Origin: Candidatus Saccharimonadota bacterium
GTDB lineage: Bacteria > Patescibacteriota > Gracilibacteria > BD1-5 > UBA6164
Length of the DNA stretch: 32,000 bases
NCBI GenBank assembly: GCA_965229705.1
Contig: OZ245922.1
Coordinates: 870,001-902,000, forward strand
Direction of reading: 5' to 3'
In this document: positions 2,998 to 31,905 of the stretch, piece after piece
Position numbering within the stretch: the stretch's first letter is position 1
Layout: each line of letters starts with the position of its first letter
Made by a program: the position numbers and the translations under genes
Notes under the pieces: generated by a model
Seen by the model: only the letters and a program-made list of their open reading frames with translations
Told to the model about the DNA's origin: nothing
The model's database searches: none

Positions 2998-5022
2998 ATG
3001 ACTTACTCAAAAGAATCACAAGATCGCATAAAAAAAATCCAAGACCTAAAAGATGCAGGAGTTATTCCTTATGCCCATAGCCTTCAAGGAAAAATAGATA
3101 TTTCTCAAATACAGGAGTATTGCTGAACAGAGAAAGTGAGAGATATTGATACGCTGATGGCGTGAAAGTGTGAAAATACATTTACTACTGCCGGAAGAAT
3201 TATCTCATCAAAATCACATGGAAAACTCACTTTTGCAAAGATCCGAGATAACTCAGGAGATATCCAAATATGTTTCATGCGTGATATGGTATCTTTTCAT
3301 TCGGGGATGCCTCAGAGCCCAAAACTCCCATCTCTAGAAATCGCTGGAGAAATGAAGTCAGCTTATAAGATAGCGGAAAAATTTTGCCAAGTAGGAGATT
3401 ATATTGCGGTAAAGTGAGACCTTTTTGAAACAAAGCATGGCGAGCTGACGATCTTTGTAAGTGAGTTTCAGATCATGTCAAAAGCCGTGAGACCTCTCCC
3501 AGAAAAATGGCATGGGATAAAAGATCAAGAAAGCATACAAAGACAACGATATCTTGATATGATTATGAATGATGACACCTATCAAAAGTTTCGAAAACGA
3601 GCATTATTTTTAAAGTCTATACGAAAATTTCTTGATGATCATGGTTTTATAGAGATTGATTGTCCCGTGCTTGATAATGCAGCATCCGGAGCTGCAGCAC
3701 AACCGTTTACTACCCACCATAATGCTCTTGATATAGATGTATATCTCAGAATTTGTGATGAAATACCTCTCAAAAAAGCAACAGCTGGAAGATTTGAAAA
3801 AGTCTATGAGATGTCAAAAGTCTTTCGAAATGAATGAATTGATCCCAGTCACTTGCAAGAGTTTACGATGCTAGAGTTTCAGGCAGCATATTGGACACTA
3901 GAACAGAATATGGATTTTGCTGAAGCATTTGCTAAGTATCTTGTAGAAAGTCTCTGAATTGATCCAAAAGTTCCCGTAAAAGATACACAAGGGAACGAAA
4001 AGATAGTAGATTTTTCACAAGATTGGGAGCGTATAAACTATTCAGATGCAGTAATGCAGGCATCGTGAGTCGATGTTTCGAGGTTTTCAGCAGAAGATGA
4101 AGAAGAACTCCGGCAGGAGATACGAGCAAAAGGATATGATTGGGAGTGACTCGATATTCAGGGAACGGCAACGATGATAGACTATCTCTATAAAAAGGTT
4201 CTCAGACCAAAGATTGTTGGACCAGCATTTATATATAACTATCCCAAGACAATGCAGCCACTTGCTCGACAGAGTGATACAAACCCTAAAATAGTCGAAC
4301 AGTATCAGGTAGTGGTAAATGGTTGGGAAATCATGAAGTGTTATAGTGAGTTGATTGATCCAACAATCCAAAAAGCAAATTTTGCTGCTCAGAGTGACGC
4401 GCTTCATCGAGGAGATGAGGAAGCAACATCAGGAGATGAGGACTATCTACTGGCTATGGAGCACGGTTTTCCTCCACAATCAGGTTTTGGTATGGGGATA
4501 GAGAGGATATTTGCGATTCTCATGCAAGAGGAAAATCTCAGAGATGTGGTGATGTTTCCTATTATGAAGCCTCTTACAGCAGAAGAAAAGACTTCATCTC
4601 AAACACAACTTGCAGTATCAGTTCTATGCAAGGACTGTCATCTTGAGAAGTGGCAGGAGCTCAATACGGTCTCTCATCTTGCAGCTTCACTTGCTGGGAG
4701 AGAGTGAAAACACCTATTTCTCTATGAGAGTGTGAAGTCTCAAGATAGTCAGGATATTCCGATGAATATGCAAAGTGCTATTATGATACAAGAGATCGGG
4801 ACACAAAAAGAAATTCATGATCTTTATCAGGAGGCTCAACATCAAGGTCTGTCAGTTGTTCCATTTACTCGAGAAATGCTAGAGACGAGTAACGATACAC
4901 TGGTACAAGAAAAAACAAGCAGTCAAAAGTTTGATGAGTTAGAATTTCTTGGAATTATGATTTTTGGAGCAAAAAAGACTGTAGAGAGTCTGACACGCGA
5001 TCTTCCACTATATGGTTCTTAA
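2998..5022 (+). CDS. lysS: Class II lysyl-tRNA synthetase with a roughly 150-aa C-terminal extra domain (DUF2000/PTH2-like).
   Basis: The track ORFs 3475.., 4174.. and 4732.. are all in frame with the ATG at 2998. Motifs FRNE(G=TGA at 3835)IDPSH, QVVVNGWEI, GFPPQSGFGMGIERI. About 10 in-frame TGA codons; TAA at 5020. Confidence 0.93.
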
Positions 5023-5110
5023 AGAGTTTTTGAGGAAAACAACCATGAGTTTCAGCCCGGGGTTCATACTCAGGACTTTCTTGAAAAGCTCTGAAGAACA
5101 TCACAAGTTT

Positions 5111-12892: not shown

Positions 12893-13468
12893 TTATACTC
12901 CAAGAAACCATATAAATCAAATAGCAATAAAGCAGATAACACAAAATATCATCAGTATGATACTCGTGCGTTTTTCATATTTGATCTGTTCCTCCAGCGT
13001 ACTGAGATGTTCTTTGAGTCATGTATTTTCAACGGCAATATGTCACTTAGATTCCTCCAGAAGAAACTGAGATTTTTTAAATTCAACGATGCTTACAGAG
13101 TTTTTTGCTATTTCTTGAGCTCTTCAAAGTTTGAGAGAAAGGTCTTGGATCACGGCATCTTTTTGTTGTATTTCACTTCTCAGATCAAGATATATTTTTT
13201 CGAGAGAGCCATTATGAGATATAGTAGATGTCTCTGATGTTTGAAAAGATTCTTTTTCTTTTGTTTGTGTATAGGAAGGATTTTGAGAAATAATAACCTT
13301 TGCTTTTTTCTCTTTTTGCGGAGAGAGATTATTGACATCATCGGCATGAAGATAGATAATCTTCCCCATTTTTTTACTTCGTATTTTTCATCATTTTGCG
13401 TATCTATCTATGCTACGAGTAGATATTCACAAAAAATCGGCAGCTTCTTGACGAGTGTAAGTATACAT
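12893..13468 (-). CDS. HTH (excisionase/MerR-like HTH_17) protein with a coiled-coil region and a C-terminal TM anchor.
   Basis: MYTYTRQEAADFL(G)ISTRSIDRYAK(GG)KIRSKKMGKIIYLHADDV, in frame with track ORF 13124..13369. C-terminus ..TSIILMIFCVICFIAIGFIWFLGV-TAA(12893). Confidence 0.65.
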
Positions 13469-13576
13469 AAGAATAATTCATAAAATACTGTCTATAATAC
13501 TATAAAAAGAACCATTTACTCGCAAAAGTTTTTGTCTACTTTATGATTGACACTTATTTTTTTCTTTTTAAAAAAC

Positions 13577-13805: not shown

Positions 13806-13947
13806 ATTTTTTGTTTATCATCTTCGGGTCTCATCCTTTTAGCTTATCGCAAGAAAAAACTCCTTGAACTGCTCGATTTTAAACAAAAATTATAATAAAC
13901 TTTTTTAAAAGGCTGAGATGCTGATTTCAGCACTTCAGCCTTTTTAT

Positions 13948-14024
13948 GTCACTATAGCTCAGTTGGTTAGAGCGCAGGATTCATATCCCTGAGGTCGGTG
14001 GTTCAACTCCACCTAGTGACACCA
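13948..14024 (+). tRNA. Elongator tRNA with CAU anticodon (Met or lysidine-Ile2; not resolvable by eye), CCA encoded.
   Basis: Acceptor GTCACTA/TAGTGAC, D-arm GCTC-AGTTGGTTA-GAGC, anticodon loop TTCATAT (A31xC39 mismatch), T-arm GGTGG-TTCAACT-CCACC. Confidence 0.8.
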
Positions 14025-14541
14025 ATTTTATACAAAAAGCTAGTGGGAGTTGAGTGGAGGCACTGATTTCCAGTCTGCGCGAAGCGCAAAGATGGAAATT
14101 GATTGCGAGGAATACGAGCAATCACCGACGGTCTGAGAGCTACTGCTTGTGAAGCAAGTTGTAGCGAAAGACAACTCCACCTAGTGACACCAATTTTATA
14201 CAAAAAGCTAGTGGGAGTTGAGTGGAGGCACTGATTTCCAGTCTGCGCGAAGCGCAAAGATGGAAATTGATTGCGAGGAATACGAGCAATCACCGACGGT
14301 CTGAGAGCTACTGCTTGTGAAGCAAGTTGTAGCGAAAGACAACTCCACCTAGTGACACCAATTTTATACAAAAAGCTAGTGGGAGTTGAGTGGAGGCACT
14401 GATTTCCAGTCTGCGCGAAGCGCAAAGATGGAAATTGATTGCGAGGAATACGAGCAATCACCGACGGTCTGAGAGCTACTACTTGTGAAGCAAGTTGTAG
14501 CGAAAGACAACTCCATCTAGTGACACCAATTTATACAAAAA
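14004..14541 (+). repeat. Tandem array of 3 full 168-bp units plus a terminal partial copy. Each unit begins with the tRNA(CAU) T-loop-to-CCA segment plus 16 nt of trailer.
   Basis: CAACTCCACCTAGTGACACCAATTTTATACAAAAA recurs at 14004, 14172 and 14340. A slightly divergent copy at 14508 has CCATC instead of CCACC and one T fewer. The three units look identical by eye. Confidence 0.9.
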
Positions 14542-14542
14542 A

Positions 14543-14579
14543 TAGTTCTTAGTTACTACTAACCAAGAACTATTTTTTT
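14543..14579. terminator. Bidirectional rho-independent terminator.
   Basis: AAAAAA-TAGTTCTTAGTT-ACTACT-AACCAAGAACTA-TTTTTTT. Overlaps the stop codon of the minus-strand CDS. Confidence 0.75.
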
Positions 14580-15640
14580 GTCAGTAATGACAGTCTTTGA
14601 TAAGCTGCTTGAAGAGGAGGAAATTGAGAGCACCTTTCCATGCTCAGTCTAATACTCTGTAGGTTGACATTGGTAGCATCCAAATTTCATCCTCTTACTT
14701 CTCTTACAATATCGTTAAGTATCGTTTCTCGAGCAAAATTTCCTTTTGTGTCACCTTCTTCTTTATTTGCTATTATATCAAATAGTCTTATAGCCTCATC
14801 AACATTTAATGGTTGTATAAGTGTATATCTTCCTCAATAAGTTAAGGAGTCTATTATATCTTTTACAGGCTTCTTTATAAACTCTTCAAATGATATTTTT
14901 TGTACATGGTTATGTACTTCTGTTTTTACTTCTTCAGTGGTTTTTTCGACTTTATCTGCGCCATATGTCTCGTATAAAAATATGAGAAAATCATAACGTC
15001 TCTTATACGCGAGCTGCAGTTTATTTCAGTCTTCATGTTTAGTGAAAGGTAGGAGGTGAGCAAAAAAACTGTATCATTGTCAAAAAAGTCATCAATCTAT
15101 TTTACACTCTTCTAAAATAATTTTGGACCAATTATTATTGATATCTTCTTGAGTCAGATTCTTTAACCATTTTGCATATTTTTGTAGATTTTCAGAAAGT
15201 TTTTTCATAGCATCACGTCATCATTTGAATTCATCTTGATAGCTTTTTTGTTGTTTTGCAAGGTTAGTATTTAATAACTGTAGTGCTGTATCTAACTTTC
15301 ATTTGTACCAGGTGATTCAGAGGTCCATTTTTGGTATTCAATACCCCATTTTTGCTGCGAAATCTCCATGTACCTCGATATGATAGTTTATATCAAAAGA
15401 GTGAGAATTGCCTTCTTTAGAGTAAGAACATGTATCAGTGATAAACTCTGGTCATCACGTAGTTCCTTCCCGAATACATGATACTATATATGTTATAATT
15501 TCATCATTTATATCCTCATGAAAGAAACTCCGTATCTCTTCATTAATTTCAAAGTGTAGTATACGTTTCTTTAGTGATGATTTTTGTAGTTTTTTTTCTC
15601 AAGAATTCTCGTGTACTTTGGGTTTTTCCATTTTATACAT
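14570..15640 (-). CDS. Hypothetical protein (356 aa), no recognisable family.
   Basis: Open from ATG 15640 to TAG 14570 with about 20 in-frame TGA codons. Translation MYKMEKPKVHENS(G)EKKLQ...HLLPFTKHED(G)NKLQLAYKRRYDFLIFLYETYGADK...; the frame was spot-checked codon by codon over 14990-15058. Confidence 0.55.
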
Positions 15641-27309: not shown

Positions 27310-28887
27310 ATGTCAGGGAAAAACAAATGATACCAAAGTCCATTTTTATATGATCTTACTGATGGTGTTGAGTTGATAGAGGTGTCTCCTCAAGCCGAAG
27401 ACCTTGCAATGTATGCTGTTGGGGGAAAGATCTTTCCAGTTCATACGGCGTGAGATACTCCAATTACTTCTAACGATCGTCCAGAATATCAAGAACTCAA
27501 AATAGTTGATGATTTCCAAATTCATCCAGAGACAGGAGAGGTAATGATTGACCAACAAAAGCTGATAGCAAATGCTTTTAATCTTGTTAAAAAAGCAGTA
27601 AAAAGTTATGTAGGATATCGTTTTCAAAGGGAATTTGATCTTGGTAAACCCATAAAATGGGATATGAGAGCCCTACAATGAGAATCAGAGGGAGATGAGA
27701 TTTTATTAAAGCTCTACTGGTCTCTTGGTCAAGATGTGAGGAAAGCTATGAAGGATTCACAAGACAAGGTTTTAAGAATACTTCAGCTTACACAATATAC
27801 AGATTACGAGGAGGCTCTTCCAATTATCCACAATGCTATTTTTGATTATGTAGCATTTGGAGTACATGTGACTTTATTCCAGAGTGATGACAACAAAAAA
27901 CTCCTTGAAAAATTACAAGCTTTATCACTGCGACTTGAGAGAGGTCAAAAAGATAGTTTAGAGGCAAGGCAAAAAAAGATGAGTCAACTTCTGAAGGCAA
28001 CTACAAGAGAGGCAAATAATATCAGAAGAGATGGAAAGAATGCAAAAAGAGAAACAGAAAGGAGGCGTCATTATAGATTAGGGAAGCATTGAGAAAAGAT
28101 GCGTAATACACAAGAAGATCGTATTACGCACACGAATTCTCTTACGCCATCTGATATTGATCTTCCATCACCAGATATTACCATTTCTCCCAATATAGGA
28201 CAAGACTATATTTGAGAGCTTGAAGAACTGATATGAAATCTTTTTTCTTTACCAGAAATAGAGTCGAAGCTTCAAGAAGGGGATATATATAGTTGAAATG
28301 TTCATCCGGTAAAAACAATTGCCCCCAAAAAAAGAGTGCAAATTCTCAAAATCATGGACAAATATATATCTTTTCTTACTTATCATAGTTCAGATAAAGA
28401 TGATGTATATCCAAGAGAATTTTTATTTCAGAATATAGAAATGCAATTAGGAGAAAAAGTGCAATTACTAGAGTTGATATTTCAGTTTGAGTTAGCTCAT
28501 CAAGGTCGATGGGATGAGGTTGTATATTTACAACAGGCAATGCTCAAAGGTTCAGGTTTTACTGTTGGTGCTGAGAGAGATCTCTCACATGCTCAGATTG
28601 AGTCTATGCTGAGTATTATAGATGCCAGTACGGATTCTTTGGTTTTTGCTATTCAGGCATGACTGAGACGCCAAGATACACATTGAGAGAAAATTTATCA
28701 ACAAGCTCTGAGAATTCATGAAGCGATACATTCATGAGTCTCATCTTCTCTTGATCTTAAAATCAATACTAAACAGAAAATACAACTTGCTATTGATGTT
28801 ATTCAGGGAAATAATTTTCGAGAAATAGAGAAGTTTTGGGAAAGATTTGTAGAGTTTTCGATAGGACATTTAGACAAGTTAATCTAA
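27310..28887 (+). CDS. Hypothetical protein (525 aa), no recognisable family.
   Basis: First ATG after an upstream TAA. Track ORFs 27736.. and 28336.. are both in frame. Contains a basic coiled-coil-like stretch (..ARQKKMSQLLKATTREANNIRRDGKNAKRETERRRH..). Confidence 0.6.
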
Positions 28888-29186
28888 TTTTGAGAAAAAA
28901 ATAATTCAACAGCGAGTGATATTGCGTTTCTTGCAAAAAAAATATTTACCAAGAATCAGGGAAAACCAAATCAAGCAGAAAAAATATTATTAAGAATATT
29001 TGCAGATAACGCTCGAAGTGAAAAGGCTTTAGGTCATAGATCACGAGTTGCACGTAATAGCTTTTGACTCACAGATGTGGGAGAATGATTTTTGAAATCA
29101 AAATAAAGGGATTATATGTTCAAAATATTTGTTTATTGGTGTGAAAAACTTGCTGAAAACTCCATAGTCTTTTCATCAAAAAATAT

Positions 29187-29214
29187 TTGACTTTACATGT
29201 CTTGTGCTTAATAT
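29187..29214 (+). promoter_or_regulatory. Stable-RNA promoter for the tRNA-Asn/Ser/Ser/CAU cluster.
   Basis: TTGACT (29187-92), 16-nt spacer, TAATAT (29209-14), then discriminator CCCCGAGCTTTCAG. Confidence 0.6.
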
Positions 29215-29237
29215 CCCCGAGCTTTCAGAAAAAGTAT

Positions 29238-29312
29238 TCCTCCGTAGCTCAGCGGTAGAGTAGACGGCTGTTAACCGTTTGGTCACTGGTTCGAATCCAG
29301 TCGGGGGAGCCA
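29238..29312 (+). tRNA. tRNA-Asn (GUU), CCA encoded.
   Basis: Acceptor TCCTCCG/CGGGGGA, anticodon stem GACGG/CCGTT, loop CTGTTAA, T-arm ACTGG-TTCGAAT-CCAGT. Confidence 0.88.
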
Positions 29313-29516
29313 TTTAAAATAGCACGAGATTGGCATTAGAGTTTTTCATACTTTATGTTTCTGACTGGATGAGAAGTTTATGCCCCGCAGGGGTAAATCC
29401 AGTCGGGGGAGCCATTTAAAATAGCACGAGATTGGCATTAGAGTTTTTCATACTTTATGTTTCTGACTGGATGAGAAGTTTATGCCCCGCAGGGGTAAAT
29501 CCAGTCGGGGAGCCAT
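29294..29516 (+). repeat. Two tandem 102-bp units plus a terminal partial copy. Each re-creates the tRNA-Asn 3' end (AATCCAGTCGGGGGAGCCA).
   Basis: AATCC.. copies at 29294, 29396 and 29498. The terminal copy has GGGG instead of GGGGG and a different trailer. Confidence 0.9.
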
Positions 29517-29572
29517 AAAAAATTATCCTTAATTTCCCCTCTCCTTTGAGGAGAGCTTTGGAATAAGGTTTT

Positions 29573-29662
29573 GGAGAGATGGCTGAGTGGTCGAAGGCAA
29601 CGGTCTTGAAAACCGTCGAGGCTTCCGGGTCTCCCAGGGTTCGAATCCCTGTCTCTCCGCCA
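29573..29662 (+). tRNA. tRNA-Ser (UGA), long variable arm, CCA encoded.
   Basis: GGAGAGATGGCTGAGTGGTCGAAGGC.., anticodon stem ACGGT/ACCGT, loop CTTGAAA, T-arm CAGGG-TTCGAAT-CCCTG. Confidence 0.88.
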
Positions 29663-29790
29663 TTTTAATATCACAAAGAGTTATTTTATAGTTTTCGTGA
29701 TAGATTGTAGAGAAAATGTGGGATGAGAAGTTTATGCCCCGTAGGGGTAAATCCCTGTCTCTCCGCCATTTTAATATCACAAAGAGTTAT
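29644..29790 (+). repeat. One 106-bp unit duplicating the tRNA-Ser(UGA) 3' end plus 22 nt of trailer.
   Basis: AATCCCTGTCTCTCCGCCATTTTAATATCACAAAGAGTTAT occurs at 29644 and again at 29750. Confidence 0.9.
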
Positions 29791-29835
29791 CCTTTTACTC
29801 CCCTCTCCTTTGAGAGAGATATGGGGTAAGGTTCT

Positions 29836-29926
29836 GGAAAGGTGGCAGAGTGGTTGAATGCGCACCCCTGCTAAGGGTGTGTACCGAATTTCGGTACCGA
29901 GGGTTCGAATCCCTCTCTTTCCGCCA
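29836..29926 (+). tRNA. tRNA-Ser (GCU), long variable arm, CCA encoded.
   Basis: GGAAAGGTGGCAGAGTGGTTGAATGC.., anticodon stem CACCC/GGGTG, loop CTGCTAA, T-arm GAGGG-TTCGAAT-CCCTC. Confidence 0.88.
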
Positions 29927-30007
29927 TTGAAATCGCAAGGCGATTTCCAGATATAAAGTTAAAAGTTTTTTATATATAATACTTTTACTTTTTTCTTGCT
30001 ACTATTT

Positions 30008-30083
30008 GGGTCTGTAGCTCAGGGGTTAGAGCAGTCGGCTCATAACCGATTGGCCGTTGGTTCAATTCCAACCAGGCCCACCA
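30008..30083 (+). tRNA. Elongator tRNA with CAU anticodon (Ile2-lysidine type or Met), CCA encoded.
   Basis: GGGTCTGTAGCTCAGGGGTTAGAGCAGTCGGCTCATAACCGATTGGCC.. From memory this resembles E. coli ileX through the anticodon arm; not decisive. Confidence 0.8.
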
Positions 30084-30264
30084 TTCTTCATGTTACTATG
30101 AGCTAGGAATGGTATGTCAGTATACCTTCTACAAGCTTTGTTATCGAAGAAACTACGTCATCTGAGTCTGAAGTGTATCCTATTAAATATTACGAGAGGA
30201 TAAGCAAAAATACTCTTTACATAAATAAAGGAATACCTTTTTGAGAAAAAAGTAGTAAATTGTT

Positions 30265-30292
30265 TTGACAAAGAGGCCTCGACTTATAGAAT
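30265..30292 (+). promoter_or_regulatory. rRNA operon promoter.
   Basis: Consensus TTGACA (30265-70), 16-nt spacer, TAGAAT (30287-92), GC-rich discriminator GAGCCGGC. Lies about 140 nt upstream of the 16S 5' end. Confidence 0.65.
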
Positions 30293-30430
30293 GAGCCGGC
30301 TTTCAAATCGGAAGGCGCAAAAATTGCTCTTTAAAATAAGCAGAATATTAGAAAAAAGTGACACTAAGTGCTTTGGAAAAAACTTAAAAAATCAAAGTCC
30401 TATATTGTAGTATATAATGTAGGCATTACG

Positions 30431-31905
<1,475 letters not shown>

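Follow-up and report, generated by a model that had tools for sequence, protein, structure and literature searches.

A small, apparently undescribed repeat with a predicted hairpin duplicates the 3' end of tRNA genes in Patescibacteria and at least one Firmicutes contig

The tRNA-Ser(UGA) locus

Why does a tRNA-Ser(UGA) gene on a Candidatus Gracilibacteria chromosome carry a second copy of its own 3' end, separated from the first by a short non-coding insert? We examined this locus within a window of 32,000 nucleotides (contig OZ245922.1 of assembly GCA_965229705.1, positions 870,001 to 902,000, forward strand), i.e., the whole stretch of DNA that was analyzed, to which all coordinates below refer unless a fetched sequence (labelled L001, L008 and so on) is named. 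The window is low in GC (35.7%), and UGA is a sense codon: all table-11 ORFs are short and ORFs become long only under tables 4/25, with housekeeping genes (LysRS, Era, Obg, RF1, CTP synthase and GyrB) reading through UGA. GyrB homologues are named Gracilibacteria, with one on a 1.0-Mb contig showing 98% identity. A 16S rRNA gene lies at 30430-31905, and just upstream is the tRNA cluster Asn(GUU), Ser(UGA), Ser(GCU), Met(CAU). A promoter-like site lies at 29187-29214 and a consensus scan finds no terminator-like site in 28800-30500; the whole cluster, units included, is therefore probably one transcript.

A search for direct repeats gives an exact 41-nt repeat, AATCCCTGTCTCTCCGCCATTTTAATATCACAAAGAGTTAT, with copies spaced 106 nt apart and flanking a 65-nt insert (29685-29749), as described in the initial annotation. 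The repeat starts at A58 of the T-loop (GGTTCG|AATCC) and covers the T-stem 3' strand, the acceptor 3' strand, CCA and 22 nt of trailer. The insert ends in GGATGAGAAGTTTATGCCCCGTAGGGGTA, the same 34-nt module that is found in the two tRNA-Asn units. The module GGATGAGAAGTTTATGCCCCGYAGGGGTAAATCC occurs three times in the window, at 29367 and 29469 (Asn units) and at 29721 (Ser unit, one mismatch in the hairpin loop), while none is expected in 100 shuffles. The features of the locus and of the two other tRNA genes in the window that carry T-loop-to-3'-end duplications are as follows.

29573..29662 (+), tRNA-Ser(UGA), the host gene, complete with CCA encoded (ARAGORN; Rfam tRNA, 58.1 bits)
29644..29684 (+), copy 1 of the 41-nt direct repeat: A58 to CCA of the tRNA (19 nt) plus 22 nt of trailer
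29685..29719 (+), variable spacer of the unit, holding AGAGA (29709-29713), which can pair with UCUCU (29758-62) of the acceptor 3' strand
29720..29724 (+), guide, acting as a T-stem 5'-strand mimic, in which GGGAU pairs with AUCCC (29751-29755)
29722..29749 (+), conserved module core GAUGAGAAGUUUAUG-CCCC-GUA-GGGG-UA, with the hairpin at 29736-29748
29750..29790 (+), copy 2 of the 41-nt repeat: a spare tRNA 3' part plus 22 nt of trailer, joined to the module at the T-loop 57/58 position
29238..29523 (+), tRNA-Asn(GUU) with 2.3 tandem 102-nt units of the same family (TRF, 97% matches), the last 3' copy being decayed by a 1-nt deletion
13948..14541 (+), tRNA-Met(CAU) with 3.2 tandem 168-nt units (TRF), with the same architecture but a different structured module (type 2)

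The initial annotation also claimed that the trailer following tRNA-Ser resembles that following tRNA-Asn (TTTTAATATCACAAAGAG versus TTTAAAATAGCACGAG). This resemblance covers only about 12 of 18 positions in A/T-rich sequence, and the Asn version also appears after the tRNA in L122, a relative with an empty site (TTATTAAAATAGCAATGAG); it is therefore probably native trailer and not part of the element. The term ‘att-like’, applied to the repeat in the same annotation, implies integrase-mediated site-specific recombination, which is not shown. The proposal that the locus belongs to a family of elements at different stages of amplification is, however, supported by the results below.

Distribution and host tRNAs

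An exact-pattern scan of one genome per GTDB species returned 26 loci and a looser scan of metagenome contigs returned 92, for a total of 118. In most loci where a tRNA is detected upstream (76 tRNAs, 84 distinct repeat instances), the module lies just downstream of a complete tRNA and is followed by a second copy of that tRNA from A58 onward, while in 41 of about 125 module instances no exact upstream copy was found. The junction is the same in about 100 instances. Hosts with a detected duplicate and module are Ser (30), Tyr (9), Gln (8), Asn (6), Ala (5), Pro (4), Lys (4) and Val (4), with one each of His, Asp and Ile. Units range from 53 nt to about 113 nt, and arrays of two or three units are common. 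As the search patterns fixed most module positions, including the flanking module sequence, the apparent invariance of the module is partly imposed and family diversity is probably underestimated.

Taxa named in the records include Gracilibacteria, Peribacteria, Moranbacteria, Shapirobacteria, Paceibacterota, Oscillospiraceae, and MAGs labelled Bdellovibrionales and Gammaproteobacteria, although the labels of short MAG contigs may be wrong. In the one non-CPR case that we examined, the L016 contig encodes a UgpC/MalK protein whose close homologues are named Firmicutes, Mogibacterium and Solobacterium.

In single-unit loci the direct repeat runs from A58 to the end of the tRNA (17-21 nt) and ends in CCA exactly when CCA is genomically encoded. 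Longer repeats, including the 41-nt repeat described here, include part of the trailer, for an overall range of 17 to 57 nt. A fixed-length target-site duplication was therefore rejected, and tRNA-primed reverse transcription was rejected as the general rule, since repeats lack CCA wherever the gene lacks CCA. Fold-back (hairpin-primed) synthesis of copy 2 was also rejected, since the predicted product differs from the observed junction and the guide is too short. Downstream copies are sometimes mutated (L056, L084, L041, L115, L017 and the window's last Asn copy), and where the two copies differ, the guide matches copy 1 in some loci and copy 2 in others.

Perfect tandem copies could in principle reflect a functionless duplication of the tRNA 3' region produced by replication slippage or by assembly error. 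This is excluded by the family-wide data: the same 33-nt module recurs in more than 100 independent assemblies and on many tRNA types, joined at the same T-loop position in about 100 instances; covariation is present; and the module is conserved in situ while the spacers diverge (see below).

At some loci no tRNA was called upstream of the module. In L067 (1029-1229, - strand), a group I intron (Rfam, 39.5 bits, below the gathering score) lies immediately upstream of a type-1 unit (the Asn/Ser type), where an intron-interrupted host tRNA (probably Tyr, undetected by ARAGORN) would sit, and this may explain some of these loci. In L033/L077, L076, L082, L108 and L118, a recurring sequence, ..TTTTC(T/G)(T/G)CAAAAAA(A/T)GTTCG(G/A)A...CACCGCA, stands upstream of the module where a normal tRNA 3' part (copy 1) is expected; its nature is not understood.

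Predicted structure and covariation

The bases just 5' of the module (GGGAU in Ser, UUUCUGACUGGAU in Asn) pair with AUCC plus the T-stem 3' strand of the following tRNA 3' copy. The Met unit does the same, with CUAGUGGGAGUUG against CAACUCCACCUAG, and folds far better than shuffles (z = -5.3). Each unit is thus a T-arm mimic in which the 5' half of the T-loop is replaced by a structured insert. On 80 distinct aligned instances, we tested a two-helix model (guide-to-target, 10 bp; hairpin, 5 bp): 85% of cells are paired, against 75.8% in shuffles, and the covariation score is 0.249 against 0.104 (0 of 500 shuffles as high; slid controls, 0.06-0.12). A permutation test on guide/target partners gave p<1e-4. 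Watson-Crick pairing beyond GGAU:AUCC is 83%, 70%, 57%, 49%, 49% and 54% at the next six positions; the helix therefore covers the T-stem plus a few acceptor bases, with pairing beyond the T-stem of only about 50-60%.

The hairpin shows compensatory variants (CCGC/GCGG, CUCC/GGAG, CCCA/UGGG) and length variants, and its loops are mostly GNA or GNRA on the sense strand. Among the listed variants, four have a U.G wobble and none has A.C, which points to a folded sense strand, either RNA or single-strand DNA. Hairpin length variants of 9-13 nt shift the reading frame, and the downstream codons come from different tRNAs, so that a micro-ORF starting at the AUG inside the module was rejected.

The invariant GGAUGAGAA of type 1 is the reverse complement of the universal T-loop UUCGAAUCC except for the central GA, which would face G57-A58 as tandem G.A, precisely where the module's 3' end is joined. 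GUCGAAC in type 3 (below) and GGAGUUGA in type 2 are likewise antisense to their hosts' T-loops. This common anti-T-loop stretch, together with the host-specific extension, is our main reason for proposing recognition by base pairing, an inference from sequence alone.

Searches against Rfam 15, at gathering threshold and at E<=10, over the Ser/Asn region (29200-29850), the Met array (13900-14600), L023 and L067 returned only tRNAs and the group I intron. Hammerhead, hairpin, HDV-like, twister, pistol, K-turn and box C/D readings of the module were checked by inspection, and essential core positions are missing in each. An HDV-like or theta ribozyme requires a nested double pseudoknot (P1, P1.1, P2, P3) with an L3 of at least 5 nt and a J4/2 cytosine, while the hairpin loop of the module is 3 nt and the P2 3' partner would have to lie in variable flank. 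The hammerhead core (CUGANGA ... GAAA with three helices) is not present, as the module reads (N)GGAUGAGAAG...UAAAU, so that C3, G8 and G12 are absent. A similarity to a dif/XerD half-site (TTATG...TAAAT) is not accompanied by a match to the XerC-arm equivalent. Full-text literature searches, including one with the module sequence itself, found no description of the family, with only theta ribozymes next to phage tRNAs turning up as a precedent (PMC10879173).

Occupied and empty sites in relatives

The relative L008 keeps the same four-tRNA cluster, with one unit on Asn (2.3 in the window) and two on Ser (one in the window); its Ser modules have a paired C/G deletion in the hairpin. L034, L039 and L065 carry 1, 2 and 3 units, respectively, at one tRNA-Ser locus. 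Four further relatives were fetched through GyrB (82-90% identity), and all keep the cluster downstream of gyrB. The Asn-Ser and Ser-Ser gaps are 55 and 23 nt in L121 and 31 and 28 nt in L122, and neither has a module. L119, the closest relative by GyrB, has gaps of 120 and 115 nt but also no module or repeat remnant, although after its tRNA-Ser(GCU) (L119:14181-14215) it has GAGCGGATGAGAGATGAAGATC, which resembles the module's GGATGAGAAG but lacks the hairpin and the 3' copy and could be a remnant or chance. The tRNA-Met orthologue in L122 is followed directly by trailer and terminator. The elements are therefore gained or lost on short evolutionary scales, and their copy number changes.

Between the window and L008, the tRNAs are 95% (Asn) and 86% (Ser) identical, the spacers 60% and 67%, and the modules 97% and 94%. 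The module is thus held constant in situ while its surroundings drift.

In-situ conservation, the sense-strand structure and the probable co-transcription of the units with the tRNAs could also suggest a host-beneficial RNA processing signal or small ribozyme rather than a mobile element, with the T-arm mimic plus module directing 3' maturation of the upstream tRNA, either by self-cleavage at UA|AAUCC or by recruiting RNase P or RNase Z. Theta (minimal HDV-like) ribozymes adjacent to phage tRNA 3' ends (PMC10879173) are similar in being small structured RNAs directly downstream of tRNA genes, possibly linked to 3' trailer processing, but their fold differs, and the present units carry a copy of the tRNA 3' part, occur in tandem arrays, and are found in cellular genomes and not in the viral contigs scanned. 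We consider this explanation unlikely, since the patchy distribution and variable copy number among close relatives argue against an essential processing role, there is no match to any Rfam ribozyme, and terminators lie upstream of many modules.

Neighboring genes and possible vehicles

All-against-all comparison of ORFs in the 26 genome loci found no recurrent neighbor. BLAST searches of 50,697 phage records, 72,556 plasmids and E. coli genomes gave no hits, and a scan of 2.9 million viral contigs gave 0. Two related large serine recombinase genes (Resolvase, Recombinase and Zn_ribbon_recom domains; L013:2585-4171 and L012:7691-7996) each end right next to a module-plus-tRNA-Ser 3' copy on the same Patescibacteria contig, adjacent to GIY-YIG and DndB-like genes. 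These are probably islands that use the duplicated tRNA 3' end as their attachment site, and the association with the unit looks incidental.

The layout is exactly that of tRNA-integrated islands: a direct repeat from the T-loop to the tRNA 3' end, an intact tRNA, tandem arrays, and empty sites in relatives. A miniature integrative element of the classical kind could therefore be envisaged, in which a tiny circular DNA carries an attP made of module plus the tRNA 3' part, an integrase of the tyrosine or serine type encoded elsewhere integrates it at the T-loop, the element supplies the new tRNA 3' end (copy 1), and the displaced original (copy 2) decays. The decay of the downstream copy in several loci and the terminators carried by many spacers are consistent with this view. 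However, no integrase recurs near the 118 loci; a 53-110 bp circle is a poor recombination substrate; one module serves at least 11 tRNA types, each with a perfectly matching 3' part, which a fixed attP cannot explain; the L122 empty-site trailer resembles the sequence after copy 1 and not that after the last copy; and cross-phylum invariance of a protein-binding site is unusual. The units also differ from such elements in being only 53-170 nt and non-coding, and in containing a guide that pairs with the T-stem 3' strand. We regard this explanation as improbable.

An IS200-like Y1 transposase gene (Pfam Y1_Tnp, E=1e-40; L064:3760-4308) lies inside the spacer of a type-1 unit on tRNA-Ser(CGA), between the tRNA and the module. 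The related array in L029 lacks it and the IS has its own terminal hairpins, so that it looks like a secondary IS200 insertion; tblastn found only one further, weak hit in the other loci (L069, about 9 kb from its module). The units could nonetheless be non-autonomous single-strand DNA elements of the IS200/IS605 or REP type, with a Y1 HUH transposase supplied in trans binding the folded hairpin, the cleavage site chosen, as in IS608, by base pairing between a guide 5' of the hairpin and the sequence 3' of it, and the duplicated tRNA 3' part being the element's right end mimicking its target site. The order guide, hairpin, junction matches the logic of an IS608 right end, GNA triloops are also very stable in DNA, and IS200/IS605 ends, their miniature derivatives (PATEs) and REP/RAYT elements likewise show a GC hairpin flanked by conserved single-stranded bases, strand-specific folding and many short non-coding copies. 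Yet a Y1 transposase was found in only 1 of 118 loci, plus the weak distant hit (without scanning whole genomes for genes acting in trans), and no linked RAYT was found. There is only one conserved hairpin and one conserved end per unit, where IS200/IS605 elements have sub-terminal imperfect hairpins at both ends and no target duplication; the spacers are unrelated between hosts; and IS200/IS605 guides are 4 nt, with targets that are not 17-19 nt mimics. REP/RAYT elements are dispersed extragenic palindromes that flank a RAYT gene and are specific to a species, while the present units are tRNA-linked, with the same sequence in Patescibacteria and Firmicutes. In-situ conservation between the window and L008 is also not expected for inert MITE copies. 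This explanation likewise seems unlikely.

Folded single-strand recombination sites (integron attC; CTX phage attP(+)) are similar in that recognition appears to depend on a folded strand in which helix sequence varies while structure and a few unpaired bases are conserved, but no IntI or Xer link is shown, the target is a tRNA T-arm, and there are no cassette genes. Tandem ribozyme-bearing repeats (retrozymes, satellite hammerhead repeats) and type III antitoxin repeat arrays (ToxI) are also short, head-to-tail, structured non-coding units that are co-transcribed; in the present units no known ribozyme core is present, no toxin gene lies adjacent, and each unit ends in a tRNA 3' fragment.

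A tentative model

Our preferred, though tentative, interpretation is that the 106-nt unit is one copy of a widespread family of miniature, non-coding, non-autonomous elements at the 3' end of tRNA genes, each with a spacer, a short guide, a nearly invariant module (GAUGAGAAGUUUAUG-hairpin-UA) of about 28 nt, and a second copy of the host tRNA from A58 to its 3' end. We propose that the element recognizes the T-loop and T-stem of a tRNA (gene or transcript) by base pairing and that its 3' end becomes joined at the 57/58 position, giving a module fused to the tRNA's 3' part, by a chemistry and an enzyme (or ribozyme) that can only be inferred. Once present, units would multiply or be lost by unequal recombination or slippage between the repeated 3' parts. 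The module and guide would be kept intact in situ because the unit is co-transcribed with the tRNA and must fold away the spare 3' strand, which would otherwise compete for the tRNA's 5' half, and be processed harmlessly; this resembles the constraint on a self-splicing intron. The predicted MFE of tRNA-Ser plus the unit pairs the tRNA's 5' acceptor strand with the second copy, which shows how the copies could interfere. However, there is no direct evidence of transposition, excision, cleavage or ligation, the acquisition of each new tRNA's own 3' part is unexplained, and about half of the units in other genomes have an intrinsic-terminator-like hairpin with a U-run between the tRNA and the guide, which would limit transcription of the module and fits a DNA-level role better.

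A further, more speculative possibility, which we consider unlikely though not excluded, is that the module is a minimal, protein-independent (or host-enzyme-assisted) catalytic or guide RNA that uses an anti-T-loop internal guide (GGAU-GA-GAA plus a host-specific extension) to attack or ligate at G57|A58 of tRNAs. It would then be a new class of nucleic-acid-guided, tRNA-targeting selfish element, with at least four structurally distinct module types, whose RNA-level products become fixed in genomes and amplify in tandem.

If our preferred interpretation holds, tRNA genes in Patescibacteria and at least some Firmicutes (MAG labels suggest further phyla) host a previously uncatalogued class of ultra-small structured elements that read the universally conserved T-loop by base pairing and copy the tRNA's 3' end. 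This would provide a new conserved RNA or single-strand DNA motif, a natural example of programmable targeting of tRNA genes by a roughly 55-nt element, an explanation for many ‘tRNA fragments’ and tandem repeats that confuse tRNA annotation and assembly in metagenome-assembled genomes, and a possible new route for tRNA 3'-end processing or interference in organisms with reduced RNase sets. Even as a miniature integrative element, it would be the smallest such element known, with an unusual host range across phyla.

Other unit types and adjacent features

Three other module types share the architecture, and the four types share an anti-T-loop stretch. Type 2 is that of the tRNA-Met array, on an unrelated tRNA-Met (13948-14024), and its junction is also in the T-loop. 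Type 3 is about 125 nt, with the core GUCGAAC.GGAAAGGGGUCGGGAAA...GGACUAGAGGG.GGAAG.CCUAUAGAGCG, and occurs in L001, L023 (3565-3720), L036 and L067. It also sits behind tRNA genes and is followed by a tRNA 3' copy, but its junctions range from position 54/55 to 60/61 of the T-loop; in L001 it is stacked directly after a type-1 unit. Type 4, of about 110 nt with a 190-nt period, occurs in L083 (reverse strand, downstream of tRNA-Ser GCU at 4942-5035) and shares GGGGAUGAGAAC and GUUUUAUG with the type-1 module, which suggests that type 1 is the minimal form of a larger family.

In the window, an ORF at 12893-13540 (- strand), next to the tRNA-Arg/Glu/Met cluster, has an N-terminus that looks like an excisionase or MerR-type helix-turn-helix (YTRQEAADFLGISTRSIDRYAKGGKIRS). 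An 81%-identical 37-nt leader (TTATCCTT..CCCCTCTCCTTTGAG; 29514-29550 and 29778-29814) precedes both tRNA-Ser genes and contains a CTCTCC/GGAGAG hairpin. It may be a processing or promoter element, and it is absent from L008 and from the empty-site relatives at these positions.
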